From the NCBI GenBank assembly GCA_045803545.1, contig JBJMOW010000004.1, positions 608,001 to 672,000 on the forward strand: a stretch of 64,000 nucleotides of DNA. The letters are read 5' to 3'. This DNA comes from Gemmatimonadaceae bacterium (lineage in GTDB: Bacteria; Gemmatimonadota; Gemmatimonadetes; Gemmatimonadales; Gemmatimonadaceae). The notes under the pieces were generated by a model that saw only the letters and a program-made list of their open reading frames with translations, had not been told where the DNA came from and searched no databases. The position numbers and the translations under genes are program-made. Of the stretch, positions 31,882 to 50,564 are shown one piece after another (the stretch's first letter is position 1; every line of letters begins with the position of its first letter).

Positions 31882-32010
31882 ACCTAACGGCCAAGTTCAG
31901 CTGCGGGCGCGCGACTCAACATGCGCGATGGAATTCGTGCGACGCAAGATCTCGAGAGGCGAGAAGCGTCAAGACTTGGTCGCGCTCGTCTGCTGCAACT
32001 ACCGTTAGCT
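31882..32010 (-). repeat. attC site
   Basis: ACCTAAC...GTTAGCT, 129 bp. Confidence 0.85.
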
Positions 32011-32487
32011 AGCGTGTGCCCGGACCCTCGCTTGGCGAAAAGTCCAAAACGTCGAACGAGAACTCGTCGTCAATAACGTTCGTTCTCCAGTCCAACTGCG
32101 CCGACGCCGGGAAGTGGTACTTAGGATCATACTTTACATCCACTCTGTCGGATTTGCGATCGTATGCAGCGGAGATCCACGCGAAAAGTGAGTCAATCGT
32201 TGGGCGTCGAAACTCCTCACTCTTTCGACCGTTTGGCAGCTCTGATCGAAGTATTTCCGCGTTTGAGACTGTCGAATGAACGACGGTAAGGCGCACCCAC
32301 TGGAACGCTCTCCGGCGCAAAAGCAGCGGTCGCGGTAGGTGAAGGAGTAGTTCTTGATGTGTAACGCCTTCCACGCAGCAAGTTGCGAGTCGACCTCGCG
32401 CGGCATACTCGGCGTGGGGATGGAGGTCGCTGGTTGACGAGCGCAGGCGGAGATTATGATGAAGCAAGCTGTTAATCGCGCTAACAT
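32009..32487 (-). pseudogene. Frameshifted lipoprotein (DUF6174-like)
   Basis: W..xIxNYSF..xCFC in one frame; TIDSLF..YDPxYHFP..DDE in another; shift near 32310. Confidence 0.65.
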
Positions 32488-32501
32488 GACTATGGACGGC
32501 T

Positions 32502-32572
32502 AGCTAACGCCTTAGTTCAGCTGGAAGCACACTACCACCATTGCGGCGAAGTCGCATCCGATACCGTTAACC
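32502..32572 (-). repeat. attC site with internal deletion
   Basis: Left arm intact, then GCATCCGA joined directly to TACCGTTAAC. Confidence 0.6.
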
Positions 32573-32587
32573 AGAATGGCGAGACGG

Positions 32588-33223
32588 TCAATCGCCGGTG
32601 ACGACTTTCACGAATTCCTTTCCATTCCAGTAGTACAACACACCTGCCTCGTTGCCGTAGAGGACGTTGATCGCTGCGTATGGTAGCGTTTCCGGCGGCC
32701 TCGGCTCGAGTGTTTTCTTAAACTCCGGTGGTATGTCGAGGGGTCCGGGTGGTTCTGTGTTTATGTAGACGTACACGCCACTTTGAAACGCCTCAAGCTT
32801 TCGATCCTCAATGGGAACAACTCGGTAAGCGGAGTCCGGCGCAGAAAGCAAAACTAAGAGTAGCTCCCGATTCTTGTCATGTCCGTAAAGAGCGACATCG
32901 GGAATGTTATCACCATTGAAGTCACCATCAGCACGATAAGTCGTGTCGACGCGTGGAGCGTACTCAGTTGAAGGAAATCTCTGGAAACCCGGTGCGTACG
33001 CTTCGAGGGCACGAGCCATGGCAGGTACGAGGTCTGGCTCGATGCGAGTGGTGGAAGATTTTGTCGTACTCGCAGTAATGCCTCTCTTGGTATGGACTAC
33101 TTGAGCGCTATCAGGTTCCTTCTCGTTGCGTGAACATGCCAGCACCACGACGAGCGTTACCACGCCTCCGCGGAGGATCCCGGAGCAGAAGGGACTCGTG
33201 CATGTTCGCAAATCGATGGTCAT
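32588..33223 (-). CDS. Hypothetical lipoprotein with an FG-GAP-like motif (cassette)
   Basis: LAC lipobox; GDFNGDNIPD; YYWNG. Confidence 0.65.
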   Translation of the reverse strand: MTIDLRTCTSPFCSGILRGGVVTLVVVLACSRNEKEPDSAQVVHTKRGITASTTKSSTTRIEPDLVPAMARALEAYAPGFQRFPSTEYAPRVDTTYRADGDFNGDNIPDVALYGHDKNRELLLVLLSAPDSAYRVVPIEDRKLEAFQSGVYVYINTEPPGPLDIPPEFKKTLEPRPPETLPYAAINVLYGNEAGVLYYWNGKEFVKVVTGD

Positions 33224-33227
33224 GATT

Positions 33228-33271
33228 GCCTAACGCGCATGTCGCGCCCGCCTGCTGCACGTTCGTTAGGC
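33228..33271 (-). repeat. attC site, internally deleted (44 bp)
   Basis: GCCTAACG...CCTGCTGCACGTTCGTTAGGC. Confidence 0.6.
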
Positions 33272-33367
33272 CGAATCACAGTTCGCCGCTTCGGAAAATA
33301 TTGCGAATGGACATGATCCCACGCCGGAGGTCGATCCGAACACCCGTCAAATGGTAGCGCCAGAAAG

Positions 33368-33769
33368 TCAGTTCCTTCTCTCGCGCAGGCCGCGCAGTTT
33401 TTGCCCGGTTAGTGATCCAATTACTACTATCGCTGCCATAATCGCATAGGCCATAAATTCGAACGGCCAAAGATTGTGGCTTGTGCCGTCTTTGATCATT
33501 TCGATTACGGCAAGAATCGGAAGAAGGATGACTGACAGGCAGCCGGCAAGTCCCTCTCGTTGAAAACCGAAAAAGCCAAGCAACACACCGAGAAAGAATA
33601 AGAGAACCCCATTCGGCCAGCCGAGTGTGTAGCTGGCATCGGTGTAAGTCTGAAAAAGCACAGTGGCGTAGTGTCGCGGAAGTGGCGACACGAGTACCGG
33701 CAGAACGAACGCCAGGTAGCCGAGTGGCGGCACTATCACCCACTTAAGAGACCGGACGTTGACTCTCAT
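33368..33769 (-). CDS. Membrane protein (cassette)
   Basis: 4 TM segments; DxTSHNLWPFE motif. Confidence 0.7.
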   Translation of the reverse strand: MRVNVRSLKWVIVPPLGYLAFVLPVLVSPLPRHYATVLFQTYTDASYTLGWPNGVLLFFLGVLLGFFGFQREGLAGCLSVILLPILAVIEMIKDGTSHNLWPFEFMAYAIMAAIVVIGSLTGQKLRGLRERRN

Positions 33770-33834
33770 AGGATCAGCCTTTACTTGCCGGATAGAGTTG
33801 ACCTACCGATCAGCGTTTGTCAGCTGGCGGGTCG

Positions 33835-33853
33835 GTCTAACGCCCAGGATCAG
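33835..33853 (-). repeat. attC remnant (R' half)
   Basis: GTCTAACGCCCAGGATCAG. Confidence 0.5.
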
Positions 33854-33854
33854 A

Positions 33855-34499
33855 TCAGCGAAAACGAGCATCGTTATCGATCCTGCGGAATAGGTCCCAC
33901 ATTGCCTTTTCGTAAACGCCGCGTGCGGGTGAGCCAGGTCCGCAGAAACCGGTTGAGTCGCGACGAACCTCTGAACCGGAGCGTTCAGTGAGGGTCCAAC
34001 CCGGATAATCTGAGCAAACCAGATTGGGATCTTGAGGTGGCAGCACAGGAGGTGCCGATGCGCGAAGCGAGTCTAGAGTTCTAAGCACTCGCGCCCAATT
34101 TGGTTCAGAACGAAAGGGGACGCGACAGATTGCTTAGTCCTTCGTTCTCACAAATGATCGACAATGATATTCTGCCCGTTGTCTTGCCTCGATTTCTTCC
34201 ACCACGCTCAGCCCAGCAGAATCGTCGGCTTCCACCAAGTAGTGGGAGATGTAGGACTCACCACGAACTCCGGCCGAGTCTACTATGATGCGAACGGTCG
34301 GGCCTGGGCCAGCCAGACCGAAATCCTGATGAATGCGGATCTCACGACCAACATTGCTTGCGATCGAAGACCCGATGTCTGGCAGCGGCCACTCGAATTC
34401 TGCCGATCTCATTGGACGTCGTGGCGCGCACGTGAGAAGTGCAGATGAACAGAGCACGGCGATCATCCGCACGATTCTAAAGTCTTTCACTCGAGACAC
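33855..34499 (-). pseudogene. Interrupted hypothetical lipoprotein cassette gene
   Basis: Two consecutive minus-strand ORFs (34134-34499, 33855-34088) in one cassette slot. Confidence 0.4.
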
Positions 34500-34514
34500 G
34501 ACCAGTGTTTTACT

Positions 34515-34606
34515 ACCTAACGCCCTAGGTCAGCTGCACGCACGGTATCAGCATTGCGGCGTAGCGGCATCCGAAAAGTGCCTGTCAGCTGCAACGTTCG
34601 TTAGGT
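34515..34606 (-). repeat. attC site
   Basis: ACCTAAC...GTTAGGT, 92-bp class. Confidence 0.85.
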
Positions 34607-34963
34607 AGCGTCGTCGTCGACGTTGTTGACCGGTGGCGAGCGGTATCCGCCAAGAACCGCGCCCGCGCCGATCAAGAGCGTGCTCATAATTGGACCAATT
34701 GGACTGGACAATGTGTTCACGACAACGACGCACGCCATCAAGAACCCGATGACCGTTCCGAGTACCGTCGGCCAGTACTGGGATTGGGCGATCCAACGCC
34801 GCCAGAGGGCAATCCGTGCGACGAGCATCGACGCGAGGATCCCACCGAGAATCCCGCCCGCCCAGAGTCCTGTTTTGCCGAACGCATGTCCGACCATCGA
34901 TCCGAGTGCGCCGCCAGCACCACCGAGCACGCAAGCCAGAAAGAAGAGAGCAGCGCGGTTCAT
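34601..34963 (-). CDS. Small membrane protein (cassette)
   Basis: 4 TM segments; AGGAGG SD; stop TAA in R''. Confidence 0.7.
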   Translation of the reverse strand: MNRAALFFLACVLGGAGGALGSMVGHAFGKTGLWAGGILGGILASMLVARIALWRRWIAQSQYWPTVLGTVIGFLMACVVVVNTLSSPIGPIMSTLLIGAGAVLGGYRSPPVNNVDDDAT

Positions 34964-35084
34964 GGAATCCTCCTCACGGCACCAGCCGCTAACGGATTAT
35001 CAAACGCTTGTCGCGCGGAGTGCATTTCGGAGGAATCACTTGTCAGTTTCGGGAGCGTGTCTGTCTCCGCGCTGAAAGATCTTG

Positions 35085-35140
35085 CCAGGCGACAAACCCA
35101 ACCACTATCGAGGGCTCGTCTGCAGCAACTACCGTTAGAT
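35085..35140 (-). repeat. attC partial (R'' half)
   Basis: AACCCAAC..GCTCGTCTGCAGCAACTACCGTTAGAT; left arm degenerate. Confidence 0.6.
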
Positions 35141-35554
35141 AGTGCGTGCGTCGGGTGCGAGTGATTCATTGCCTGTGATTTTCGGATCGCCGGTCCACCA
35201 AGTTCTGTTCTTTCGTCTTTGTAGTTCCTCCGGCCAAGGCTCCGTACTCAACAGGCGCATTGTGTCGCCAAGATCTGGCCGATAACTCGGCGCTCGGAGT
35301 AACCATACCCCGATCGCAATAGCGGCGGCGAAGACGCCAACCAAAACGATGACTCCGCTAGTCGGTGTCTTCTCATCAAACGCAGCTGGCCAAATCGTGG
35401 CGACTATCTCGACGAGTATCGCCAAGGTTCCGAGCGACACGAACCAGAGGCCGGCGACTCTGCGCAAAAGATTAGTAAAGCGTGCGTGGCCCAACTTCCT
35501 CAAGAGAAAGAAGAACGAACCGACGAACAAAATCCCTACGACTACGCTGCGCAT
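35135..35554 (-). CDS. Membrane protein (cassette)
   Basis: 3 TM segments; C-terminal RTWWTGDP; stop in R''. Confidence 0.65.
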   Translation of the reverse strand: MRSVVVGILFVGSFFFLLRKLGHARFTNLLRRVAGLWFVSLGTLAILVEIVATIWPAAFDEKTPTSGVIVLVGVFAAAIAIGVWLLRAPSYRPDLGDTMRLLSTEPWPEELQRRKNRTWWTGDPKITGNESLAPDARTI

Positions 35555-35560
35555 TGTGTC

Positions 35561-35591
35561 TCGTGCTTGCCTGCTGCAACGTTCGTTAGAC
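35561..35591 (-). repeat. attC partial (R'' half only)
   Basis: GTGCTTGCCTGCTGCAACGTTCGTTAGAC abutting the next gene start. Confidence 0.6.
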
Positions 35592-35647
35592 GGTCAGGGA
35601 GGCGGCGGCCGCTCCTTTGGAGAGCGTCGGCGTGTGTCACCATCTTC

Positions 35648-36640
35648 CTAGTACACGTCAAGGTCCCGACCGATGACAAACTGCCCGGTGTATCGCGAGC
35701 TGATTTCGTCCCGGAGCACTTCTTCCGCGGAGCCCAATGCGGCACCACCAGCTGCAGCGGACAGAAACTTCGGAGGTGCAATCCCGGGACGGAATCCTAG
35801 GGTGTGATAGATCACCAGTAATTTCGGCTTTGCCCGCATCGCGAGGGCAGCCAGCTGTTCGGTCGTCGTATGGTACTTGGTGACAAAGGAGTGGAGACGT
35901 TCGGGCATCTTCGCATACAACTCCATCGGCTGCGCCTCGTGGACCAGAACGTCACATCCGTGACAAGCCTTGATTGTCTCGTCGGTTGGACCGGTATCGC
36001 CCGAGATCACGATACTGCGGTCCGTGGTATCGAACCGAAATCCGTAACTCTCCATCGCGTGTTGGGTGACGAACGCGGTTACGGTTACCAGTGAGTCCTT
36101 GTAGACGATCCCCGGCTTGATTTCATGCGCGTTCACTTTCCAGCCATCAGCGATAGCGCGTTGGTTTCCCTGCGGGTTGGTGCGCGTCTCGATGTCGATG
36201 CGATAAGCCTGCAGAATGTGATCTGTCATCGACTTCAATCCGGTCGGGCCATAGACCTCGAGCGGAGTGCTGCGCCCCGACGTCCATCCAGTGAAGATCA
36301 GATCCGGGTAACCAGCCGTGTGATCGGAGTGCAGGTGCGTAACGAAAGCAACTTTGAGGTTGGCGGGCTCGAGTGCCGTGACACCTCGTTGGAGAACAGC
36401 GGCTTCCGCACGACGTACGACTCCGGGTCCAAAATCGACCAGATAGGCATTGTCCCCAACAATGATTGCGGTCGCAGGACCGGACCGGTCCGGATCGGGA
36501 ACAGGTGTGCCCGTTCCGAGCAGCACCACGCGCGTCCGCGGTAGATTGTCCACAGGCCGCTCTACGAGAAGTTGTCTATGAGGAGCGACGACCGTTGTTA
36601 GGAGTGCAGCAAAATGGCAGACGACCTGAGGGATAATCAT
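35648..36640 (-). CDS. MBL-fold metallo-hydrolase (RNase Z/AtsA-like), secreted (cassette)
   Basis: LGTG, THLHSDH, SGDT, HEA and YHTT motifs. Confidence 0.85.
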   Translation of the reverse strand: MIIPQVVCHFAALLTTVVAPHRQLLVERPVDNLPRTRVVLLGTGTPVPDPDRSGPATAIIVGDNAYLVDFGPGVVRRAEAAVLQRGVTALEPANLKVAFVTHLHSDHTAGYPDLIFTGWTSGRSTPLEVYGPTGLKSMTDHILQAYRIDIETRTNPQGNQRAIADGWKVNAHEIKPGIVYKDSLVTVTAFVTQHAMESYGFRFDTTDRSIVISGDTGPTDETIKACHGCDVLVHEAQPMELYAKMPERLHSFVTKYHTTTEQLAALAMRAKPKLLVIYHTLGFRPGIAPPKFLSAAAGGAALGSAEEVLRDEISSRYTGQFVIGRDLDVY

Positions 36641-36689
36641 CGGTAACCTCTGTGAATCAGCATTACGAAGCGAGCGCCTGGTGGGATCC

Positions 36690-36783
36690 GTCTAAGGCCC
36701 AAGTTCAGCTGCGGGCGAATCAAATAAAAAGCGAGCGAACCGAGCATCCAAAAATCGCCCGACTGGTGCAGCGTTCGTTAGAC
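36690..36783 (-). repeat. attC site with mutated crossover base
   Basis: GTCTAAG instead of GTCTAAC ... GTTAGAC. Confidence 0.7.
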
Positions 36784-36996
36784 CGGCGGCGCGAACGCCT
36801 TGAGGTACCCGCACTTGGGACAGCGATAGCTGACCACCGGAAAGAGCTCCTTCCCACGCGTCTTGATTCCGGTCAACCGCCTCTCTTCCACCGGACCGCG
36901 AAGCCACGTCTGCGTACGACGGCTTTCCAAGTCGAGCGTAACTCCCTCTTCCATCGAAGCGTTGCATTCTGGACACGTCTGGGGCTTGGGCGTCAT
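36778..36996 (-). CDS. Small zinc-ribbon protein (cassette)
   Basis: CPEC..MEEG and YRCPKCGYL motifs. Confidence 0.75.
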   Translation of the reverse strand: MTPKPQTCPECNASMEEGVTLDLESRRTQTWLRGPVEERRLTGIKTRGKELFPVVSYRCPKCGYLKAFAPPV

Positions 36997-37030
36997 TGCG
37001 AATCCTTGAACGCGAGGCAGGTCGTGCTCG

Positions 37031-37121
37031 GTCTAACCCCTAGTTCAGTTGCAAGCACACTACCAGCATTGCCGCGTAGCCGCATCCGAAACGTGCTTGT
37101 CTGCTGCAATGTTCGTTAGGT
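37031..37121 (-). repeat. attC site
   Basis: GTCTAAC...GTTAGGT, 91 bp. Confidence 0.85.
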
Positions 37122-37760
37122 AGCCGGCGATGCGGCAGTCTTTGATTTTTTCCTTGCATTAATCTTAGCCTTGAGCTTGGCTTGAAATCCTCTTCGCTGT
37201 TTGGTTACCTCGTAGAGCACAATTCCTGACGACGTACCAAGATTCAAGCTTTCGATAATTCCAAACATCGGAATGTTCACACACAACTCGCTTCGCTGCA
37301 GTGCGAGGTCACTAATCCCTATGCCTTCGTTTCCAAACCAAACCGCGAGTTTCTTGAACCTGGTGTAATCTGCTTCGTGCAGCACCACGTTTTTGCACCC
37401 CTTAGTGTGTGGAGACGTGACAACCGAAACGAACCTATTTCGTTCGAGATGTTCGAGACAGCTTGCGGTGTCATGGAATTTCTTGACGAAGCTCCACTTG
37501 ATTGCAGAAGCCGAGATGGCACTCAACGTTTTTCTAGTGCGCATTTCCTGCCAGTCGTCCGGCAAGAAAGTCTGGTCAGTGACGATGTAGGTCTTCTCGA
37601 CGCCGAGTGCGTTCACATTTCTAATAATCGTTCCAATATTTCTTAGATCGCTCGGGTTCTCGATCACCGCGATCAGGTTTTTGCAGCGGAACTCCTTGAT
37701 CTTATCGGCTTTCGCGCGGAGCGATGGTTTCGATTTCTTGATCTCTTCCATAAGTGCCAT
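37116..37760 (-). CDS. SpoU/TrmH family RNA methyltransferase (cassette)
   Basis: NIGTIIR, FGNExxGIS and IPMxGxxESLN motifs. Confidence 0.9.
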   Translation of the reverse strand: MALMEEIKKSKPSLRAKADKIKEFRCKNLIAVIENPSDLRNIGTIIRNVNALGVEKTYIVTDQTFLPDDWQEMRTRKTLSAISASAIKWSFVKKFHDTASCLEHLERNRFVSVVTSPHTKGCKNVVLHEADYTRFKKLAVWFGNEGIGISDLALQRSELCVNIPMFGIIESLNLGTSSGIVLYEVTKQRRGFQAKLKAKINARKKSKTAASPAT

Positions 37761-37769
37761 CTGAGGCGT

Positions 37770-37900
37770 ACCTAACGCCCAAGTTCTGCCGCGAGCGCCC
37801 AACCGAGTGAGCGCGACAAGCTAAACGTCGTTAAGACTCGAAGGGAGATCAACCTTAATTCCTCGAAGCGAGCGCTCGTCTGCTGCAACTATCGTTAGAT
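37770..37900 (-). repeat. attC site
   Basis: ACCTAAC...GTTAGAT, 131 bp. Confidence 0.85.
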
Positions 37901-37918
37901 GGCAGCGATGGAACCTTG

Positions 37919-38233
37919 CTAGCTTGCTCTGGGAAGTGGAGAGAGCTTAGCAATCCGCTCAGCGTCTTTGGAGCTGAGCGCGTGCCAAAGATCCCAGTCC
38001 AACTGCAGGCCGAGCCAGAAATCCGCGCTCATTCCTGTTACCTGGGCGAAACGGAGTGCCGTATCTGGTGTGACGCCTCGTTTCTGACGAATGATCTCAT
38101 TGAGCCGAGGGAGGGAGACGCCGAGGCGGATGGCGAAGGCAGACTGTGAGACTCCGAGTGGCTTCAGGAACTCCTCCAGAAGCATCTCACCCGGGTGTAC
38201 CGGTGGAATCGCTGTTGGCAAGCGACGGCGCAC
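37919..38233 (-). CDS. higA: HigA family antitoxin
   Basis: PVHPGEMLLEEFLKP, KRGVTPDTALR and FWLGLQ motifs. Confidence 0.9.
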   Translation of the reverse strand: MRRRLPTAIPPVHPGEMLLEEFLKPLGVSQSAFAIRLGVSLPRLNEIIRQKRGVTPDTALRFAQVTGMSADFWLGLQLDWDLWHALSSKDAERIAKLSPLPRAS

Positions 38234-38258
38234 CAGCCGCGGGATGCTCGATGAGCGC

Positions 38259-38371
38259 TTAGTGGTAGTCCGTGACTTCGACTTCGTCGGCATAAGTCCC
38301 CTCCCAGCGGAAACAGACCCGGTACTGATTATTGATGTGGATACTGTGTTGACCGCGTCGATTTCCTTCGA
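38259..38371 (-). pseudogene. higB: 5'-truncated HigB (RelE-family) toxin
   Basis: EGNRRGQHSIHINNQYRVCFRWEGTYADEVEVTDYH* fused to an attC half. Confidence 0.8.
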
Positions 38372-38414
38372 AGCGCATCCGAAAAGTGCTTGTCTGCTGC
38401 AACGTTGGTTAGAC
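38368..38414 (-). repeat. attC partial (R'' half)
   Basis: GCATCCGAAAAGTGCTTGTCTGCTGCAACGTTGGTTAGAC. Confidence 0.7.
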
Positions 38415-38888: not shown

Positions 38889-38906
38889 GAGCGAAGCCCG
38901 GTGGCT

Positions 38907-39034
38907 GTCTAACGCCCAAGTTCAGCTGCAAGCGATTCTACTAAACCAGCGCGATGGATTCGCACGGACGAAATACGCGAAAGGCGCACAACCAACGACT
39001 ATCACGCGCTCGTCTGCTGCAACTATCGTTAGCC
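38907..39034 (-). repeat. attC site
   Basis: GTCTAAC...GTTAGCC. Confidence 0.9.
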
Positions 39035-39046
39035 AGCGGTGATCCG

Positions 39047-39523: not shown

Positions 39524-39538
39524 AGTTCCTCCTCGTCT

Positions 39539-39668
39539 GGCTAACGCCCAGTTCAGCTGCGAGCGCTGTCCCATTTGAGCGAGACAAACTAAACCTCGTT
39601 AAGGGTCGAAGAGCGATCAACCCTAATTCCTTGAAGCGAGCGCTCGTCTGCTGCAACTACCGTTAGGA
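39539..39668 (-). repeat. attC site
   Basis: GGCTAAC...GTTAGGA. Confidence 0.9.
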
Positions 39669-40169: not shown

Positions 40170-40190
40170 ACATGAATGCCCGTTGACGCT

Positions 40191-40319
40191 ACCTAACGCC
40201 CCTGTTCTGCTGCGAGCGATCTGCTCAACATGCGCGATGGAATTTGTGCCGCGCAAGATCTCGACAGCCGCACAACCCAACGATTATCACGCGCTCGTCT
40301 GCAGCAACTACCGTTAGCC
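40191..40319 (-). repeat. attC site
   Basis: ACCTAAC...GTTAGCC. Confidence 0.9.
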
Positions 40320-40797: not shown

Positions 40798-40831
40798 AAC
40801 TAAAGCTATTCTGGCCGGCTCTATTTCGTCT

Positions 40832-40959
40832 GGCTAACGCCCCAGTTCTGCTGCGAGCGATCTGCCTTCAACGCGCATTAAGAGCTCCAAAGCAGCATAC
40901 TTGCTAGCCGAGAAACCCAACGACTATCAAGCGCTCGTCTGCTGCAACTACCGTTAGGT
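40832..40959 (-). repeat. attC site
   Basis: GGCTAAC...GTTAGGT. Confidence 0.9.
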
Positions 40960-40968
40960 GGTGCGCGG

Positions 40969-41517: not shown

Positions 41518-41540
41518 AACGTCGATTTCCAGTTGCAACC

Positions 41541-41632
41541 ACTTAACGCCTTAGGTCAGCTGCAAGTACGTTACAACCATTGCGACGAAGTCGCATTCGA
41601 GAAGTGCTTGTCCGCTGCAACGATCGTTAGGC
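41541..41632 (-). repeat. attC site
   Basis: ACTTAAC...GTTAGGC, 92-bp class. Confidence 0.85.
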
Positions 41633-41705
41633 GGCGTGGCACGATCACTCGCTTGTGCATTGCTAAGCCACGCAAAGTCCATATTGGCGCCTGTTGAGAG
41701 CGAAT

Positions 41706-42263
41706 CTACAGATTCACGGACTTGAACCGTCGTCGATAACTGAGGTTGCGTCCCGAGACCATGAACACTCCATCGCCGCGATAGTGGACCGTCTGGGGAT
41801 AGCGCGGTGACGTCGCGACGTGAGCCTTCACTACCTCGAAGATGAATAGGCTGTATCGGTTGATCCGACTCCCGTCAACCAATTTGCACTCGAAATTCGC
41901 GTAGCACTCAGCGATAAGCGGCGCCTTTACTTTTGATGCCTTGACGGGTGTAAGGCCAAACGCCTCAAACTTGTCGCCTTTGCCTCCGTGAATGTTACCA
42001 ACACCGATGACCGTGTCGATGAGATCAAACGTCGGAATGTTGATCACGCATTCCTTACTCCGGCGGATTAGCGAAAAGCTGTGGTTTTCGTCCCATATGA
42101 AACAACCGAAGAGCGCGGGCTCAAATCCGAGCATCATGTGCCAGCCCAGAGTCATGACGTTCCGCTCGCCTCGATGGGCGGAGCTGATGAGCACAATAGG
42201 CCCCGGCTCAATGAAGCGCCGGATCTTCGTGAGGGGCAAGCTCCTCTTTTTGTACCTTCTCAT
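41706..42263 (-). CDS. Flavin reductase-like family protein (cassette)
   Basis: PGPIVLIS, ECVINIP, DKF and APLIAEC..FEC motifs. Confidence 0.85.
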   Translation of the reverse strand: MRRYKKRSLPLTKIRRFIEPGPIVLISSAHRGERNVMTLGWHMMLGFEPALFGCFIWDENHSFSLIRRSKECVINIPTFDLIDTVIGVGNIHGGKGDKFEAFGLTPVKASKVKAPLIAECYANFECKLVDGSRINRYSLFIFEVVKAHVATSPRYPQTVHYRGDGVFMVSGRNLSYRRRFKSVNL

Positions 42264-42288
42264 TCTTCCGTCCAAGTCCGGGCAGTCC

Positions 42289-42383
42289 GCCTAACGCCTG
42301 AGTTCAGCTGCGAGCGACCGATCGAACGGCGCTCACATGTGTTCAATAGCACGCGCGCTCGTCTGCTGCAACGTTCGTTAGCT
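42289..42383 (-). repeat. attC site
   Basis: GCCTAAC...GTTAGCT. Confidence 0.9.
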
Positions 42384-42953: not shown

Positions 42954-42974
42954 CAAGCGGAGGTCCGTCTGGCT

Positions 42975-43072
42975 AGCTAACGCCCAAGTTCAGCTGCGAG
43001 CGACTCTGATGTAGCTGCGATCATATCTAATTCCTTAAAGCGAGCGCTCGCCTGCTGCAACGTTCGTTAGAC
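42975..43072 (-). repeat. attC site
   Basis: AGCTAAC...GTTAGAC, 98-bp class. Confidence 0.9.
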
Positions 43073-43078
43073 GGCGAG

Positions 43079-43762: not shown

Positions 43763-43779
43763 CAATGCTAGTTCTCGCC

Positions 43780-43907
43780 GTCTAACGCCCAAGTTCTGCT
43801 GCGAGCGACTCTACTATCATAGCGCGAAAGACTCGATCACACGAACACCCGAAGAGGATTCAACCCAACAACTATCAAGCGCTCGTCTGCAGCAACTACC
43901 GTTAGAT
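43780..43907 (-). repeat. attC site
   Basis: GTCTAAC...GTTAGAT. Confidence 0.9.
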
Positions 43908-43925
43908 AGTGAGGCGCGAGATCTC

Positions 43926-44357
43926 TCAATAGCATTCGATGCCACCCTTGCATGGCGGAGCCATTTTCATTCTCACTACAAGAGTGTCTATCGCGCTCGC
44001 GGTCAGATTTCGTTGCTCGGTTTGCGCCATGTAACCGATCCGACGGACTAATACCCTGTAGGAGCCGGGTTCAACGCGACGGATGATGAAACTCCCGCGT
44101 TTATCTGTATAGGCAAAATAGGATCTACCGCTGCTGCTCGGTTGCAGAAGTATTTGCGTCGTTTCAAGCGGAGATCCCGCCGCAGAGTCGAGGACTGCGC
44201 CCACGAGGGCAGCAACGCGTCTTCCGGTGGAATCCCGCGCAATAGAATCCGGATCAACGTGTGGTATGAAGATGTTTGGCGCGAAGAGCGGCGTCGGTCT
44301 GTGCGCACAGGCGGCGACGACGATGAGGATGCCTACAGCTGTAGGGTGATGCCGCAT
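43926..44357 (-). CDS. Lipoprotein with carboxypeptidase regulatory-like domain (cassette)
   Basis: AAC lipobox; GxVLDS and EPGSY..RRIGY motifs. Confidence 0.75.
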   Translation of the reverse strand: MRHHPTAVGILIVVAACAHRPTPLFAPNIFIPHVDPDSIARDSTGRRVAALVGAVLDSAAGSPLETTQILLQPSSSGRSYFAYTDKRGSFIIRRVEPGSYRVLVRRIGYMAQTEQRNLTASAIDTLVVRMKMAPPCKGGIECY

Positions 44358-44393
44358 GAATCTTACAGTTTGTAGAAAGAGCTGCTTCTCACT

Positions 44394-44522
44394 ATCTAAC
44401 GCCCAAGTTCAGCTGCGAGCGATTCTACTATCATAGCGCGAAGACCCTGCACATATGAGCGCTCGAAGGGCGCACAACCCAACGATTTAACCCGCGCTCG
44501 TCTGCTGCAACTACCGTTAGGA
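44394..44522 (-). repeat. attC site
   Basis: ATCTAAC...GTTAGGA. Confidence 0.9.
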
Positions 44523-44524
44523 AG

Positions 44525-45106
44525 CTACTCACGAGATGCTGACTGACTAGCAAGAAACTCCCGAAGTCCTTCAAAGTCCGCGAGCATCCTGAGCTTCCAT
44601 TGTCCATTCACTCTGCGCAGCTCCATAGCCTGCACTCCACGTATTGGTCGCTCGCTAGCTGGCAATCGCCACTGGTACACAACGTACGCTCGGTCGGGTT
44701 CGGGTTGAGCGACACCGTAGATGTTGATGCCTTGAAAGCGATCGAGTGCGGATCCCTGTGAACTTGTCGCGACGAAGAAGGAAAAGAGCCTGGCGTTGAA
44801 GTCGGCGTCTGAGAGAGTACTCAGAACGAGTTGCGTCGGCGTCCCGAGGACACGCACGGCAAGACGGTGCGTGGAATCTTTCTCGAAGATCGGCAGGAAT
44901 GCTGCCTTTGTTCTCGCCAGTTCTTCGGGGTCTGTAAGGCTTGCTGATGTTCTCCAGTCCTTGGCTAGCAGCGCATCGGAGTATCGTTGCACGACCTCCG
45001 ACGGGGTGAGACTCGCCGCTCCAGCGGCTCTGTTTTGCGCAGGTGTTTCACTCGGCGAAATCAACGCGATTGTACTTGCGAGAAGAACTAGACGGCCGCG
45101 TACCAT
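44525..45106 (-). CDS. Hypothetical secreted protein, NTF2-like (cassette)
   Basis: Signal peptide; TPSEVV..Y and LRRVNGQWKL motifs. Confidence 0.65.
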   Translation of the reverse strand: MVRGRLVLLASTIALISPSETPAQNRAAGAASLTPSEVVQRYSDALLAKDWRTSASLTDPEELARTKAAFLPIFEKDSTHRLAVRVLGTPTQLVLSTLSDADFNARLFSFFVATSSQGSALDRFQGINIYGVAQPEPDRAYVVYQWRLPASERPIRGVQAMELRRVNGQWKLRMLADFEGLREFLASQSASRE

Positions 45107-45132
45107 AGGCAAAGAGAATGTGTAGGTAGGCT

Positions 45133-45266
45133 TCCTAACGCCTTGTTCAGCTGCGAGCGACTCTAGCATCTAAGCAGAATAGTATTTCCGCGCCGCAGGC
45201 CAAACGCCTGAAGAGCGATCAACCAAACGACTTTGGCGCGCTCGTCTGCTGCAACTCTCGTTAGGT
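45133..45266 (-). repeat. attC site
   Basis: TCCTAAC...GTTAGGT. Confidence 0.9.
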
Positions 45267-46040
45267 AGCAAAGTGCGGAAGGGTAGAATCTGGCCAATGG
45301 AAATCAATGAAGTGCGAAGGCGAGTTAATGACGACGTGATTGATTCTGTTCGGGTGGTATGACAGAGTTGCGCCTGCCCACACCTCAACGCCTCCTGGCA
45401 TTGTTGGCAGCACCTGCGGTAACGGACTGTCTACGAGATTGAAGAAAAACTTATATCCCCTCCATTCGAAGAGCCCGCCGGCAAGGCCGTGTCCCTCCCA
45501 GATTAGCGGCATGAAGACCAGCCCGCTCAATGGTTTGATCGTGTCGCCAACGCTCGCAGCGGAGTAAAGCCCCATGGGTCTTACGATGGGCGCTTGGCCA
45601 AACGCCGCGGCAACCAGCGACCGCGGCGGCCGATCTCCGTCGTTCCCAAGCGCCCATTGGATATTCCAATCATTAACTAGCGCGAGATTGATTGCCGTTT
45701 TCAGGAACCATCGCTCGAGGAGACTGGCATCAACGCCGAAGCAATGAAGAAACCATTGACGGGATCCCAAGCGACGGCGCGATTCAGTAAGCTTCTCGGC
45801 TGCTTCAAATTCCTCAAATGCGCGTGCGCCGGCTTCATCGACTGGCGACAGGGCGCTGTTGTGATCTCGACAAAGAAACTTGGAGACAATCGCTGCTGTC
45901 CCCACCTCTTTAGGCGTGGTCTTGCACCAAGGGAAGCCGACAACGGAGATCTTGTTGGTTCGCCAAAATGCTTCGGTAACCAGATGCTCTCGGGAGATTT
46001 TTCCACCACAGCCGCCTAGACGGCTCGCCCAACAATTCAT
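45261..46040 (-). CDS. HNH-like zinc-binding nuclease domain protein (cassette)
   Basis: C..C..SREH ... LCxxHNxxLS..D pattern. Confidence 0.65.
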   Translation of the reverse strand: MNCWASRLGGCGGKISREHLVTEAFWRTNKISVVGFPWCKTTPKEVGTAAIVSKFLCRDHNSALSPVDEAGARAFEEFEAAEKLTESRRRLGSRQWFLHCFGVDASLLERWFLKTAINLALVNDWNIQWALGNDGDRPPRSLVAAAFGQAPIVRPMGLYSAASVGDTIKPLSGLVFMPLIWEGHGLAGGLFEWRGYKFFFNLVDSPLPQVLPTMPGGVEVWAGATLSYHPNRINHVVINSPSHFIDFHWPDSTLPHFAT

Positions 46041-46063
46041 TTCTTAACTAATCTGTGTATGCT

Positions 46064-46192
46064 ACCTAACGCCCAAGTTCTGCTGCGAGCGACTCTACTA
46101 TAGTAGCGCGATTCACTTGCATACATGAAACGCCCGAAAGGCGTTCAACCCAATGACTATCAAGCGCTTGTCTGCCGCAACTACCGTTAGGC
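46064..46192 (-). repeat. attC site
   Basis: ACCTAAC...GTTAGGC. Confidence 0.9.
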
Positions 46193-46528
46193 AGTGTGGG
46201 CGTCTTGCGCTTTCCATATGACACCGATCATAGAGGAGCACTGGCGTGCATATGCCACAGCATTGTCTCGCTCGACGGGACCGGCGCTATGAGCTACAGA
46301 GTTCCGGACCCGTCTGAGATCTCCGATCTCTGTTGCGATTTGAGAGCCGAGCAACCGATCGTTACCGATAACTGCTTCGGCTGATCGTCCTACTCTGCAC
46401 TCGATACCTCGTGCGGCGAGATAGTCTCGAACCGTCAGCTCCAAGCGACGGTACCAATCCAGAACGAGCGCGTGTGGCGCTTCGTCAGCCATCACCGAGA
46501 CGTAGTCATCGAAATTGGTTGCGGTCAT
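46187..46528 (-). CDS. HEPN-like protein (cassette)
   Basis: Helical; LRxxRNSVAH (RxxxxH) motif. Confidence 0.65.
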   Translation of the reverse strand: MTATNFDDYVSVMADEAPHALVLDWYRRLELTVRDYLAARGIECRVGRSAEAVIGNDRLLGSQIATEIGDLRRVRNSVAHSAGPVERDNAVAYARQCSSMIGVIWKAQDAHTA

Positions 46529-46547
46529 ACAAACTCCGTGAACAACT

Positions 46548-46676
46548 GTCTAACGCCCAAGTTCAGCTGCGAGCGATCTACTATCAAGCCGCATTGCGAT
46601 TCGTGCTTCAGAAAAACTTGAAAGGCGAGAAACCCAACGACTATCACGCGTTCGTCTGCTGCAACTACCGTTAGGC
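46548..46676 (-). repeat. attC site
   Basis: GTCTAAC...GTTAGGC. Confidence 0.9.
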
Positions 46677-46713
46677 CGCAGTGCGAGCGCAGTTGGTTTT
46701 CGCATGTGTGACT

Positions 46714-47148
46714 TCAATTGCGGAACAAGTTCTCCTGTTGAAATCGCTGCATTGCAGACGAAAGGTTTTGTTCGAGAGCCCAGTAGTTATCAATCGCTCG
46801 ATTCAGCATGTCCACTGCTTCTTCGCGCGCATCGAAGGACACCACACGCGGCTGCTTCTTCACATTCCAATGCTTTAATGCATTCTTGGCAAGGTTTGCC
46901 CGATGAGCGATTTCGCTGCCTTCGATAGACTCGCCTGTGAGATGTTTATGAATCTCGACAGCTGCCTTCTTGATTGTCTCGACTGAGTTCTTCACTCCAT
47001 TTGCGGTGAGAAGCTGGCCGAAAATCTCGTCAGCAGCGCCGCTAAGAGAGATTACAGAGTAATAGTCCTGCCCCTCAAAGTAGAGTCGGAGCGCAGTTTC
47101 GAGTTGAACGAGCGCCATCCCCATTCGGTCATGTTGTGCCAGCGCCAT
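46714..47148 (-). CDS. Hypothetical helical protein, HEPN-like (cassette)
   Basis: QLETALRLYF, LSGAADEI and KNALKH motifs. Confidence 0.65.
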   Translation of the reverse strand: MALAQHDRMGMALVQLETALRLYFEGQDYYSVISLSGAADEIFGQLLTANGVKNSVETIKKAAVEIHKHLTGESIEGSEIAHRANLAKNALKHWNVKKQPRVVSFDAREEAVDMLNRAIDNYWALEQNLSSAMQRFQQENLFRN

Positions 47149-47160
47149 TCCTGTCTGTCG

Positions 47161-47289
47161 GCCTAACGCCCAAGTTCTGCTGCGAGCGATCGACCAGCAA
47201 CGCGCATTATCATTTCTCCACGCACTGCAATCGACAGGCGCACAACCCAACGACTATCAAGCGCTCGTCTGCAGCAACTACAGTTAGGC
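47161..47289 (-). repeat. attC site
   Basis: GCCTAAC...GTTAGGC. Confidence 0.9.
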
Positions 47290-47733
47290 AGGCTGCGGAC
47301 GATGCTTCCTTTCCGCTGTGCCACGACGCTCGTGTAGAATCAGTCGCGTAAAAGCGCCTCCGATAACAGCCGTTGCTGGGATCGCGACAAAAGCGAATAT
47401 TGCAGAGTTGACTACTTGGATGCGGTCGAGAGCGGACAGCCCTCGAGGACTAAGCCTCGGCCAACTTTCTGGCGATATCTGACCCAGGGCGTAAAGTGTT
47501 CCCATACCTGGAAGAAAGAAAAACACTCCAGAGACAACACCCACGCCAAGCGCCAGTGCGAGTGCTGCGGGCCATTCGTGTTTCCTGCGGTCACCCAAGT
47601 AAACCGCAAGCGCTCCGCCTAATACCGGCCATACGAGTGGGTACAAATAGCTTCTTGGGTAAAGAGCGTTGAGGTAGAACAACAATCCGCTAACGGCGCC
47701 TATCAATGCGGCGTCTCTAAAGTTCGATTGCAT
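47284..47733 (-). CDS. Membrane protein (cassette)
   Basis: 4 TM segments; GGAGG SD; stop in R''. Confidence 0.7.
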   Translation of the reverse strand: MQSNFRDAALIGAVSGLLFYLNALYPRSYLYPLVWPVLGGALAVYLGDRRKHEWPAALALALGVGVVSGVFFFLPGMGTLYALGQISPESWPRLSPRGLSALDRIQVVNSAIFAFVAIPATAVIGGAFTRLILHERRGTAERKHRPQPA

Positions 47734-47792
47734 AAAGCCTCCGCGGATCTGTATTAACGTAAAGGCGCCCCGAGAATACCTGCATATGCGCT

Positions 47793-47920
47793 GCCTAACG
47801 CCCCAGTTCTGCTGCGAGCGATCTATTCACCATGCGCGATGGACTCGCCGACGGCAAGATCTCGACAGGCGAACAACCCAACAATTGTCACGCGCTCGTC
47901 TGCAGCAACTATCGTTAGGC
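47793..47920 (-). repeat. attC site
   Basis: GCCTAAC...GTTAGGC. Confidence 0.9.
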
Positions 47921-48178
47921 AGTGGCGCGGACTTCCATCATCGGAAGGTCATTAGGTAACGCACTCCACCGATTAAAGTCTACGTCCGTCGCTTGAGAGA
48001 TTCTCTCGTCGCTTTCGTCTCGCGAGTTCCACGCAGTATTGATGTGGTGGTAGACATGCTGCATGTCGACCCAGTACTCACCGTAGTCGTAGTCCGCAGT
48101 ACTCTCGATTGACTTAATCATTTCGTCCAGAGCTTCGCTGGCTTCCTTTAGTTGCGAAAGAACTTGATTCCGGTTCAT
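47915..48178 (-). CDS. Small acidic hypothetical protein (cassette)
   Basis: 87 aa; HVYHHINTAWNSR; GAGG SD. Confidence 0.7.
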   Translation of the reverse strand: MNRNQVLSQLKEASEALDEMIKSIESTADYDYGEYWVDMQHVYHHINTAWNSRDESDERISQATDVDFNRWSALPNDLPMMEVRATA

Positions 48179-48209
48179 TGGTGCCTCACACGAAATCTCG
48201 ATTTCATCT

Positions 48210-48307
48210 GCCTAACGCCCCAGTTCTGCTGCGAGCGACTCTAATGTAGCTGCGATCATAACTAATTCCTTAAAGCGAGCGCTCGTCTGCAGCAACTACC
48301 GTTAGAC
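48210..48307 (-). repeat. attC site
   Basis: GCCTAAC...GTTAGAC, 98-bp class. Confidence 0.9.
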
Positions 48308-48952
48308 AGCGCGTGTGACGGGACGCTTGTATTGCGGCAGCTCCGGCGGTGCCAACAAGTAGCTGTTCCACAAAAAAGGTTCACGCATCTGTTCGGCTAA
48401 AAATTCATCTAGCACGAGCGAGTGCATTCGCACTCTGTGATCTTGCGCGCGATTGTGCCGGCGAATGAGTTCCTCGAGATATTCTTCACTCGGTAGAACG
48501 ATTGTCGCGACCGTGGGATCCAAGCGCAGGTCCTCAGTTCGGATGCGCCACTCCCGCTCCCAGCAAAAATCAATTGGCGGCTCACTTGTCGGTTCGTACC
48601 GTACGTGCCGATAGCGAAGCGATTCCGGTAACTCTGAGAACTCAGACTCTGGCTGGTAAATCACCGGCCGTCCTCCTCTCTCAAAGAGCCATTTCTTAGG
48701 AAGCAGGACTCCGAATGGCATGTAACGAAGCCGTTGGGCCGCGGTCCGCGCGAAAACGTCAGTCAGATGCGCGAGGGGCGCTTCCGTGAAACAAACGCAA
48801 GTGTAATTGCCTTTGATGAAACCCGTGCCGCCGAGGAGTCGCGAGTCACCGACGATATGCGAAAGGACCTCGAACGCTTCAGTGGGGGAATCGCCCTTAG
48901 TGAAGTGAATAACATCATTCGCTATGTCGTCGCGCCTCTGAAATGGATTCAT
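48302..48952 (-). CDS. AbiGi-like / ADP-ribosyltransferase-fold hypothetical protein (cassette)
   Basis: IHFT, VCFTEAP, Y.PFG..KxWL..GGRPVIY and EREWR motifs. Confidence 0.65.
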   Translation of the reverse strand: MNPFQRRDDIANDVIHFTKGDSPTEAFEVLSHIVGDSRLLGGTGFIKGNYTCVCFTEAPLAHLTDVFARTAAQRLRYMPFGVLLPKKWLFERGGRPVIYQPESEFSELPESLRYRHVRYEPTSEPPIDFCWEREWRIRTEDLRLDPTVATIVLPSEEYLEELIRRHNRAQDHRVRMHSLVLDEFLAEQMREPFLWNSYLLAPPELPQYKRPVTRAV

Positions 48953-48967
48953 AGCGTGTTAGCGGCT

Positions 48968-49102
48968 GTCTAACGCCCCAGTTCTGCTGCGAGCGACTCT
49001 AACATAGTTGCACGATGGCAGTTCCGCGCCGCAGGCGATGCGCTCGAAGAGCGTTCAACCCAACGACTAACAAGCGCTCGTCTGCAGCAACTAACGTTAG
49101 GT
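48968..49102 (-). repeat. attC site
   Basis: GTCTAAC...GTTAGGT. Confidence 0.9.
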
Positions 49103-49318
49103 GGTGCCTTTGGTAGCGCGGATTTTCTCACGCGATTCCCACCAGCGTGAAAACAACATCCAAAGACTTACTGCCAGAGATAAGAACGTAGATATCCATT
49201 CGCGTCTTTGAAAACTGTCCCATGCGAGCCAGAAGAAGACTAGAGCAAACGCGATGTCTACGAAGGCGACCACGCGATCCTTTGAAGGGAGCGGTGCTTT
49301 TATCATAGATGCATCCAC
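49097..49318 (-). CDS. Small 2-TM protein (cassette)
   Basis: Fills the cassette from R' to R''. Confidence 0.6.
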   Translation of the reverse strand: MDASMIKAPLPSKDRVVAFVDIAFALVFFWLAWDSFQRREWISTFLSLAVSLWMLFSRWWESREKIRATKGTT

Positions 49319-49451
49319 CTAACGCCCCAGTTCTGCTGCGAGCGATTCTAACATAGCTGCGAAAAGATTGCGACGCACCGCAGGCAAAACGCCGGAAAAG
49401 CGAGAAACCCAACGACTAACACGCGCTCGTCTGCAGCAACTACGGTTAGAT
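49317..49451 (-). repeat. attC site
   Basis: ACCTAAC...GTTAGAT. Confidence 0.9.
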
Positions 49452-49920
49452 AGTGAGGCGCGCGAAGTTGTCGGGTCGCAGTCGATATCGATGAAAGAGT
49501 TGCGTTTGAAACAGCTATTCTCAGTATGACCGTATCGACCACACCCGCACGAAGGTCGCGGCGACCAATCGAAGGCAGGTAGCCAAGGCGACGAGCCAAT
49601 ACGTTGTAACTGCCAGGCTCAATTTTTCCGATGACGAAGCCACCGCTTTTATTGGTATAAGCAGCGCGCCGGTTTGTCCCGTCGGGAGACCTAAGAAGCA
49701 CCTGCGCGCCTTCTATGCCCGAACCTGAAGCAGAATCCAGAACGACCCCAGCCAAGGCTCCCAGCTTTCTGCCCGTCGAGTCTCGGGTGACAGAATCCTG
49801 CGGAAAACCTGGGATTCCAGTTGTGAGTACGTTGTTAGTTCGGGACGTGACGCATCCAATGGCAGCAACTAACGATGTGGCCGTGAAAACTGTTCTGCGC
49901 ATAGCAGCGAGGTTGATCAC
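49348..49920 (-). CDS. Lipoprotein with carboxypeptidase regulatory-like domain; frame reads into its attC
   Basis: Paralog of 43926-44357 (RDSTGR, EPGSY, RRLGY). Confidence 0.7.
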   Translation of the reverse strand: MINLAAMRRTVFTATSLVAAIGCVTSRTNNVLTTGIPGFPQDSVTRDSTGRKLGALAGVVLDSASGSGIEGAQVLLRSPDGTNRRAAYTNKSGGFVIGKIEPGSYNVLARRLGYLPSIGRRDLRAGVVDTVILRIAVSNATLSSISTATRQLRAPHYLTVVAADERVLVVGFLAFPAFCLRCVAIFSQLC

Positions 49921-49949
49921 CTTAAGTGCGGAAGAATGTGTGTCTCACT

Positions 49950-50041
49950 ATCTAACGCCTTAGTTCAGCTGCAAGCACACTACCACCATGGCGGCGAAGC
50001 CGCATCCGAAAAGTGCTTGTCAGCTGCAACGTTCGTTAGGC
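49950..50041 (-). repeat. attC site
   Basis: ATCTAAC...GTTAGGC, 92-bp class. Confidence 0.9.
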
Positions 50042-50464
50042 GGTGGGTGCGTGATCTTCATCGGTCAAAATGCGGTAGGAACCGTCGGTATTACGTGCCG
50101 CGCGAAGGCCACCAATCGGCGCGACGGGCACATTGAGCCGCTCGCAAACCCAATGACGCTTGTGTACCCAAAGGGGATGCCGAGTGTGGAAAGGGCACGT
50201 CGGCCATGTGGTATCAATATGCGAATCCAAAAACTCTTGTTGGACGTACTCTGCAACGCGCTGCTCGTAGTCCTCCGCATCGACGCGTACGTGGTTAGGG
50301 CCGTTTACGGACTCTCTTTGCGAGCGCGCTTGCTGGCGAATGAATTTGGCGTAGGCGCCGCCTAGGGTTACACCGATATCGTTGTCGAGGGCGGAAATTA
50401 CGCGAGCCTCATCGTCTGATGTGATCTCGTTACGCGGTTCTAAAACGCCTGAGTGGTTTATCAT
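50036..50464 (-). CDS. Hypothetical protein with a putative Zn-binding motif (cassette)
   Basis: WPxCPxHxxHPL..WxC..APIGGL. Confidence 0.7.
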   Translation of the reverse strand: MINHSGVLEPRNEITSDDEARVISALDNDIGVTLGGAYAKFIRQQARSQRESVNGPNHVRVDAEDYEQRVAEYVQQEFLDSHIDTTWPTCPFHTRHPLWVHKRHWVCERLNVPVAPIGGLRAARNTDGSYRILTDEDHAPTA

Positions 50465-50466
50465 CC

Positions 50467-50564
50467 GCCTAACGCCCCAGTTCAGCTGCGAGCGACTCTA
50501 CTCTAGATCCAATCATATGCAATTCCTTAAAGCGGGCGCTCGTCTGCTGCAACTACCGTTAGGT
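50467..50564 (-). repeat. attC site (first cassette)
   Basis: GCCTAAC...GTTAGGT, 98-bp class. Confidence 0.9.

Follow-up and report, generated by a model that had tools for sequence, protein, structure and literature searches.

Short open reading frames ending on the recombination core in the attC sites of a Gemmatimonadaceae chromosomal integron

The integron and its attC sites

The DNA analysed here is a stretch of 64,000 nucleotides (nt), called the window below, from a Gemmatimonadaceae bacterium (assembly GCA_045803545.1, contig JBJMOW010000004.1, positions 608,001 to 672,000) with a genome of 3.7 Mb in 6 contigs and 60% G+C. It contains an integron, with the integrase gene intI at 51307-52305 on the minus strand, encoding a product of 332 amino acids that matches Pfam PF00589 and PF13495 as well as NCBIfam TIGR02249 (440.9 bits, cutoff 265). 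About 30 cassettes lie at coordinates below intI, where open reading frames (ORFs) alternate with attC repeats on one strand, the minus strand, and these repeats are canonical attCs, the recombination sites of what is a sedentary chromosomal integron (SCI). Many of the attCs contain a short ATG-initiated frame, or mini-ORF, that stops exactly on the recombination core. The analysis confirmed that this feature is real and over-represented in the attC family of the genus, with most of the statistical weight coming from a few conserved lineages.

The relatives of IntI present in public genomes are distributed over many phyla, many Gemmatimonadota among them, and share at most 61% identity with the enzyme. 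A pattern scan of the whole genome detected no second array, and an Rfam scan of the window returned no family match. The intI gene points the same way as the cassette array and is not divergent from it; near the distant IntI relatives, all matches of the covariance model described below are likewise on the IntI strand.

Using direct-repeat families and inspection of the minus strand, we delimited 28 complete attCs of 67-135 nt between 50564 and 25787. Alignment of the 28 sites gave a common layout of R'' (xxCTAAC), L'', a variable centre, L' (GCAGCWGAAC), a spacer of 5-6 nt and R' (GTTAGNN). The R''/R' pairing of CTAAC with GTTAG (alignment pairs 3-138 to 7-134) is kept in 26-28 of the 28 sites, and both the R''/R' and the L''/L' helices are retained, four pairs showing compensatory changes. 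From these attCs we built a covariance model of 20 pairs (R1), which recovered all of them in the window together with a degenerate 29th site at 35140-34999, and all 29 matches had E ≤ 3.1e-7 and lay on the minus strand. The assignment of these sites as attCs, on which IntI would act in the form of the folded bottom strand, follows from this anatomy.

We define frame 0 as the frame that reads TAG (TAA at 41541) at positions 3-5 of the R' core. A mini-ORF running from an in-frame ATG to this stop occurs in 18/28 window attCs and is absent from 10; it comprises 11-18 codons and ends at positions 3-5 of the core (GTTAGNN or GTTAAGT) in 18/18 cases. ATGs in frames 0, 1 and 2 number 20, 3 and 9, respectively, in the 28 sites. 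A sequence-only reading of this DNA had listed 17 such attCs between 31882 and 50564, and direct reading retrieved the in-frame ATG, the 11-18 codons and the core stop in all 17. The three peptides that it quoted proved exact, and the motifs that it took for Shine-Dalgarno (SD) sequences, TAAGGA-N7-ATG in three 98-nt attCs and GGAG-N6-ATG at 40959-40832, are present. It was right about its three exceptions (42289, 38907 and 37770) but missed four more in the same range (45266-45133, 39668-39539, 37121-37031 and 36783-36690). Outside that range, 31372-31284 is a further positive, and 30071-30005, 26514-26416 and 25878-25787 are further negatives, which brings the total to 18/28.

All of these sites are on the minus strand, and the peptides below are given without their stop. 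The 98-nt class is represented by attC 50467-50564 (mini-ORF 50516 to 50469, MIGSRVESLAAELGR), 48210-48307 (48259 to 48212, MIAATLESLAAELGR) and 42975-43072 (43024 to 42977, MIAATSESLAAELGR), and these are the three sites with TAAGGA-N7-ATG. To the 92-nt class belong 49950-50041 (50005 to 49952, MRLRRHGGSVLAAELRR), which has no SD and places its AUG in the apical stem; 41541-41632 (41596 to 41543, MRLRRNGCNVLAADLRR), with TAA in GTTAAGT as its stop; 34515-34606 (34570 to 34517, MPLRRNADTVRAADLGR); and 31284-31372, an 89-nt member with a 3-nt deletion and a 16-codon mini-ORF (31336 to 31286, MRLRCNGCNVLAELGR), which is the positive absent from the earlier list.

The long attCs include two sites of 135 nt, 49317-49451 (49354 to 49319) and 48968-49102 (49005 to 48970), that encode the same peptide, MLESLAAELGR. 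Mini-ORFs are carried by the 128-nt sites 47793-47920 (47833 to 47795, MVNRSLAAELGR), 43780-43907 (43820 to 43782, MIVESLAAELGR) and 40832-40959 (40878 to 40834, MRVEGRSLAAELGR), the last with the GGAG-N6-ATG mentioned above, and by six sites of 129 nt: 47161-47289 (47213 to 47163, MIMRVAGRSLAAELGR), with two in-frame ATGs and GGAG upstream; 46548-46676 (46594 to 46550, MRLDSRSLAAELGR); 46064-46192 (46122 to 46066, MQVNRATIVESLAAELGR); 44394-44522 (44434 to 44396, again MIVESLAAELGR); 40191-40319 (40231 to 40193, MLSRSLAAEQGR); and 31882-32010 (31922 to 31884, MLSRAPAAELGR). Long attCs such as 43780-43907 and 46548-46676 also carry GCGCTTGATAGT in both arms, next to L'' on its inner side and immediately ahead of L'; the two copies form a direct and not an inverted repeat and are unable to pair in the hairpin. 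In some long attCs an internal core-like GTTAGAG follows immediately after the ATG, and in the fold computed for the RNA of 49102-48968 this element and R' compete.

The 10 sites without a mini-ORF differ in how the frame is lost. In attC 45133-45266 (134 nt), the ATG is the one seen in the sites at 49451 and 49102, and a 1-nt deletion in the L'-R' spacer shifts the frame; in 37031-37121 (91 nt, 92-nt class), the ATG is kept and a 1-nt deletion beside R' puts it out of frame. The class ATG is also out of frame in 36690-36783 (94 nt, R' = CTTAGAC), where a longer upstream frame reaches the R' TAG, and in 42289-42383 (95 nt) TGA comes directly after the in-frame ATG. An in-frame ATG is absent from 39539-39668 (130 nt), 38907-39034 (128 nt), which has CTGG in place of its relatives' CATG, and 37770-37900 (131 nt). 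The short site 30005-30071 (67 nt) has no internal ATG, and no ATG is found in 26416-26514 (99 nt) or in 25787-25878 (92 nt), the last attC found in the array.

Short reading frames in the attC family of the genus

R1 matched 101/151 related genomes, including 82/90 of the same genus, with about 545 matches in all; both tallies of genomes include five unpublished ones (G054, G087, G070, G069 and G039), none of which contributed sequence to the attC analyses. A larger set was assembled from arrays of about 30 published relatives of the same genus, in which cmsearch returned 116 + 80 matches at E ≤ 1e-5, and 192 full-length sites were extracted. From the resulting 220 sites (28 from the window plus 192), we removed 15 that had no stop at R' positions 3-5 or were shorter than 60 nt and 4 that contained N, which left all 28 window attCs and 173 belonging to relatives, 201 in total. 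The stop at R' positions 3-5 is present in 205/220 family members. In addition, R1 scored 72.9 bits on attCs beside the intI of a Gemmatimonadaceae metagenome-assembled genome (L025).

An ATG-initiated frame-0 ORF reaching R' was found in 127/201 attCs (63%), against 21% in 300 dinucleotide shuffles of the central part (standard deviation (sd) 2.7%, maximum 31%). The opposite strand has a GTTAG end as well, and such an ORF is found there in 10/192 sites (5%). In 76% of sites (cluster-weighted), frame 0 stays open over 20 codons or more, versus 51 ± 5% in shuffles, and frames 1 and 2 close at a median of 3 codons before R'. When ATG, GTG and TTG are all accepted as starts, 88% of sites have one in frame, compared with 70% in shuffles.

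Since the attCs are kin, figures from unclustered sites overstate the case. After clustering at 80% identity (43 clusters), the ORF-bearing weight was 19.0 versus 8.6 ± 2.0 in shuffles, and 0/300 shuffles reached the observed value. By length, the ORF is present in 86/130 attCs of at most 97 nt (31.1 in shuffles), in 9/21 of 98-100 nt (4.3 in shuffles) and in 32/50 of more than 100 nt (9.8 ± 2.7 in shuffles). Among those of more than 100 nt, the excess persisted after cluster weighting, at 12.9 of 23 versus 4.2 ± 1.4, with 0/200 shuffles reaching it. In-frame ATGs in the long attCs stand at varied distances from the stop; positions 33, 36, 42, 54 and 57 nt before it are each used in 3-6 of the 80% clusters.

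Counted by frame, cluster-weighted ATGs number 22.9, 3.6 and 21.3 in frames 0, 1 and 2, against expected values of 15.6, 12.4 and 15.4 (sd 2.8). In the long class clustered at 90%, frame 0 leads, with 40, 5.5 and 17.5 ATGs versus 21.8, 18 and 21.1. Cluster-weighted ATGs in frame 1 are about 3-fold below shuffles (3.6 versus 12.4). An explanation of this depletion by which ATG is avoided only where the frame continues into the next cassette was considered and rejected: the TGA of L' CTGAAC closes frame 1 in 163/201 attCs, while 32/119 frame-2 ORFs run out. Many attCs (for example at 49950-49975, minus strand) close all three frames within about 16 nt, in the arrangement C-TGA-AC-TAA-GGCGT-TAG. 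Frame 1 is closed by the L' TGA, frame 2 by a TAA or TAG in the spacer or by TAGTAG before L', and frame 0 by the R' TAG.

Translation signals, downstream starts and surroundings

An SD-like 4-mer (GGAG, GAGG or AGGA) 4-18 nt upstream accompanies 10/140 frame-0 ATGs, with a background of 3.4% at any position, and the attCs of 98-100 nt account for 7 of these, out of 9 ATGs. The 16S tail of the genome carries CCTCCT, and SD-like 4-mers precede about 19% of long ORFs by a crude first-ATG call, against 9% of random 15-mers. SD use is thus low genome-wide, so the lack of an SD is not unusual in this organism, and the argument in the sequence-only reading that downstream genes have no room for a ribosome-binding site of their own is weak evidence.

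In the 98-nt class, all 14 attCs of 96-98 nt with [TA]AAGGA have a start codon exactly 7 nt downstream, ATG in 7 and TTG in 7, and in 14/14 the frame of this start is frame 0 and has no stop ahead of the one in R'. In the RNA fold of 48307-48210, an internal loop holds the SD core GGA and the apical loop holds the AUG. The AUG of the 98-nt class is unpaired with a mean probability of 0.71, compared with 0.38 in attCs of at most 97 nt and 0.46 in long attCs; the ATG of the 92-nt class (position 36) is paired as part of the apical palindrome. Judged from this sequence anatomy, a relay in which ribosomes pass through the mini-ORF to the next cassette is well supported as a candidate mechanism for the 98-nt class, the sole class for which this can be said. 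For the long class, in which the excess survives moderate clustering but an SD is lacking and the AUG is paired, the relay is possible but unsupported. Selection on the ORF of the 92-nt class is unlikely.

The predicted start of the next cassette lies at most 38 nt from the R' stop in 23/28 window attCs by a longest-ORF heuristic. Genes beginning 0-4 nt after the stop had been claimed at two places. The one at 50464 stands: its ATG is 4 nt past the mini-ORF stop of attC 50467-50564, and of nine homologues retrieved, six were aligned and show a conserved N-terminus. At 49318, a GTG abuts the stop but is only one of the candidate starts, an ATG following 12 nt further on. To look for one cassette standing behind more than one attC, 13 window cassette proteins were compared by tblastn with all fetched loci; 3/13 matched, with 7 matches in total. 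The sole match extending from residue 1 paired the gene at 31398-31871 with locus L137, where the start is about 10 nt after an attC remnant.

On the attI side, a core GTTAGGT (51124-51118, minus strand) and a 6-codon ATG ORF ending on its TAG (MSLIRR, 51140 to 51120, minus strand) were read from the sequence. This ORF has no SD, its leader is U-rich, and it could have arisen by chance. The first cassette gene (50615-51037) starts 82 nt beyond it.

Directly upstream of intI and on the same strand lies a gene for an ATP-dependent DNA ligase (PF01068 and PF04679; 52377-53468, minus strand), followed by a tannase/feruloyl esterase gene. Within the array, the products of two cassettes (49348-49920 and 43926-44357, minus strand) contain a carboxypeptidase-regulatory-like domain (PF13620), and a flavin reductase-like protein is the product of the cassette at 41706-42275; of the remaining cassette proteins that were tested, most had no Pfam match. 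Unpartnered attC halves, R'' near 38414, 35591 and 35140 and R' near 33838 and 32505, suggest decayed or fused cassettes within the array.

Explanations and precedents

The feature that first draws attention to these mini-ORFs is their shared C-terminal tail, LAAELGR. It is the translation of ...CTC GCA GCW GAA CTK GGG CGT TAG, that is, of L'-spacer-R' DNA. In the conserved 3' half, which consists of L' (GCAGCWGAAC), the spacer and R' (GTTAG), one frame is stop-free up to the TAG at core positions 3-5, so any in-frame upstream ATG gives a peptide ending in this tail; and because the tail is dictated by DNA that is conserved and base-paired for recombination, it is uninformative on peptide function. 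A functional micropeptide with the conserved C-terminus SLAAELGR would account for the near invariance of the last 7-8 residues. This stretch is conserved and paired as DNA, with compensatory L''/L' changes, whereas the N-terminal halves and the lengths vary between classes and the frame is frequently broken, and on these grounds we reject the idea as having practically no chance of being correct. If the mini-ORFs do not matter, they are a useful warning that a conserved recombination sequence can mimic a conserved peptide.

Our tentative reading, with a probability of roughly 45%, is that the mini-ORF of the 98-nt class is a genuine initiation unit and that the ORFs of the other classes are most likely a tolerated by-product. 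In an mRNA of the 98-nt class, AAGGA, the 7-nt spacer and the AUG or UUG would be exposed in hairpin loops. Once the array is transcribed, a ribosome starting at the mini-ORF would melt the 3' arm of the hairpin and terminate on the core TAG. This TAG precedes the start of the next cassette by anything from a few nt to some tens of nt, and the ribosome could then reinitiate or leave the next start unmasked. In the 92-nt and 128-135-nt classes, with no SD and an AUG that is mostly paired, the ORF would be translated at a low level or not at all. Its translation may require the hairpin to have been opened by a ribosome that completes the upstream cassette at the R'' TAA.

A number of results weigh against this reading or against initiation signals in the other classes. 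Independent origins are few, and clustering at 70% identity (6 clusters) leaves 1.6/6 and no excess. With 80% cluster weighting, attCs of at most 97 nt have 3.7 of 14.1 versus 2.3 ± 1.1 (reached by 20/200 shuffles), and for those of 98-100 nt the observed value is reached by 28/200 shuffles; neither is significant. The cluster-weighted counts show frame 2 to be as enriched as frame 0 overall. The AAGGA and the A/T change in the start codon of the 98-nt class could be conserved for DNA-level reasons. Outside that class, the SD-like 4-mer accompanies 3/42 ATGs in long attCs and 0/89 in those of at most 97 nt. No extra conservation of the ATG was seen among 71 unique 92-nt sequences, where the frame-0 ATG is kept in 63, the frame-2 ATG (position 52) in 62 and neighbouring triplets in 63-68. 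Indels in this class ignore the frame: the ATG-stop distance is 51 nt in 72 sites, another multiple of three in 4 and a non-multiple in 15. Three window negatives (45266, 37121 and 36783) keep the class ATG out of frame through downstream indels of 1-2 nt. Other attC families show no excess either, with a frame-0 ATG ORF in 5/29 attCs of distant IntI relatives and, in other genera of the same order, in 6/39 (G112), 2/18 (G135), 0/3 (G107, where the 3 with an R' stop were counted among 5 matches) and 0/3 (G103). The mini-ORF excess is a property of the attC family of the studied genus, not of attCs generally. G112 (L200-L202) and G135 (L196-L199) have large arrays in which the attCs form a homogeneous family particular to each genus, at about 128-134 nt and 66-73% G+C, and show no mini-ORF excess.

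One alternative holds that the mini-ORFs are purely incidental, a few ancestral attCs having had an ATG in the frame left open by L'-R' DNA and then multiplied, with no effective translation at any time. The fading of the signal with clustering depth fits this account, as do the baseline in other families, which equals the shuffle expectation, and the derivation of 74/141 frame-0 ATGs from one conserved motif of the 92-nt class that is part of the apical palindrome. SCI arrays are, besides, generally regarded as poorly expressed far from the promoter. Chance alone would not be expected to produce the strong strand asymmetry or the frame-1 depletion, nor does it sit easily with the long-class excess that survives 80% clustering or with a 98-nt class that unites an SD, the right spacing, a start in a loop and an open frame in 14/14; we regard a purely incidental origin as less likely than not.

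The opposite extreme, a relay selected in all classes, in which the whole attC family has been shaped to open the hairpin and hand ribosomes to the next cassette, would explain the excess over shuffles and over the opposite strand, the 88% of sites with an in-frame start, the unusually open frame 0, the several positions of in-frame ATGs in long attCs and the depletion of frame 1. It has to contend with the absence of an SD from all 89 ATGs in attCs of at most 97 nt and from 39/42 in long attCs, the mostly paired AUG, an ATG no more conserved than its flanks, tolerated frameshifts, the 37% of sites without an ORF, the equal enrichment of frame 2 and the lack of excess in other families or at deep clustering, and it appears improbable. 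Similarly doubtful is the more elaborate proposal that the family was selected as a modular ribosome relay, which would keep one frame open from the R'' TAA to the R' TAG with a start in 88% of sites and close the others before R', so that ribosomes arriving in any frame are terminated and restarted for the next cassette. If this were true, translation, and not only transcription, would be portable with the cassette.

The sequence-only reading had described the mini-ORFs as a portable coupling device that feeds ribosomes to whichever cassette follows. The geometry fits and the ORF is over-represented; what does not follow the proposal is the scarcity of SDs outside the 98-nt class, the lack of extra ATG conservation, the tolerated frameshifts and the absence of an excess in other families. 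The comparison of ATG frequency by frame with shuffled sequences, which it had suggested, gave an excess of the ORF in the 63% versus 21% and in the 19.0 versus 8.6 at 80% clustering, but none at 70%, and frame 2 was as enriched in ATGs as frame 0. Nor is the idea new, as it had been treated: passages in PMC8876359 and PMC11511950 credit Jacquier et al. 2009 with describing, for class 1 integrons, short ORFs within attC that promote downstream translation by termination-reinitiation, relieving the block imposed by the hairpin, and published attC-ORF cases are called 'anecdotal' in PMC11511950. Our literature search found no systematic survey of small ORFs in chromosomal attCs; only class 1 work surfaced. 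The mechanism itself is already known, and a relay function in the 98-nt class is plausible on the motifs and folds described above.

The class 1 attC ORF, as presented in those two papers, resembles the present one in being a short ORF inside the attC stem-loop linked to termination-reinitiation. It differs in that a few mobile resistance cassettes are involved there, whereas here 63% of one chromosomal attC family across a genus carry the ORF and one class has an SD. ORF-11 of attI1 (with ORF-17 and ORF-18; Hanau-Bercot et al. 2002, as cited in PMC8876359) stops at the same position as the mini-ORFs, on the TAG that the inserted cassette has at positions 3-5 of its GTTRRRY core, and is described in PMC8876359 as acting by translational coupling on cassettes without a translation initiation region; the parts of PMC8024014 and PMC4670013 on ORF-11 and attC hairpins agree. 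The attI side of our integron likewise has a short ATG ORF, the one of 6 codons, ending on the core TAG. As ORF-11 lies in attI, it reaches no cassette beyond the first, and its start is a canonical GGAG-N8-ATG, whereas the mini-ORFs occupy attCs throughout the array and mostly have no SD. Termination-reinitiation coupling in operons is also similar, with a stop a few nt before the next start and an upstream ribosome that unmasks a structured start; the difference is that the upstream ORF here would ride on a mobile recombination site, not on a neighbouring gene.

How promoterless cassettes with short leaders get translated behind arbitrary neighbours is a practical question for integrons. A chromosomal attC family with an ORF in most of its sites, one class of which carries a full SD-start unit and one cassette of which starts 4 nt past the stop, offers a natural test series, and this series would show whether attC-borne ORFs matter outside clinical class 1 integrons.

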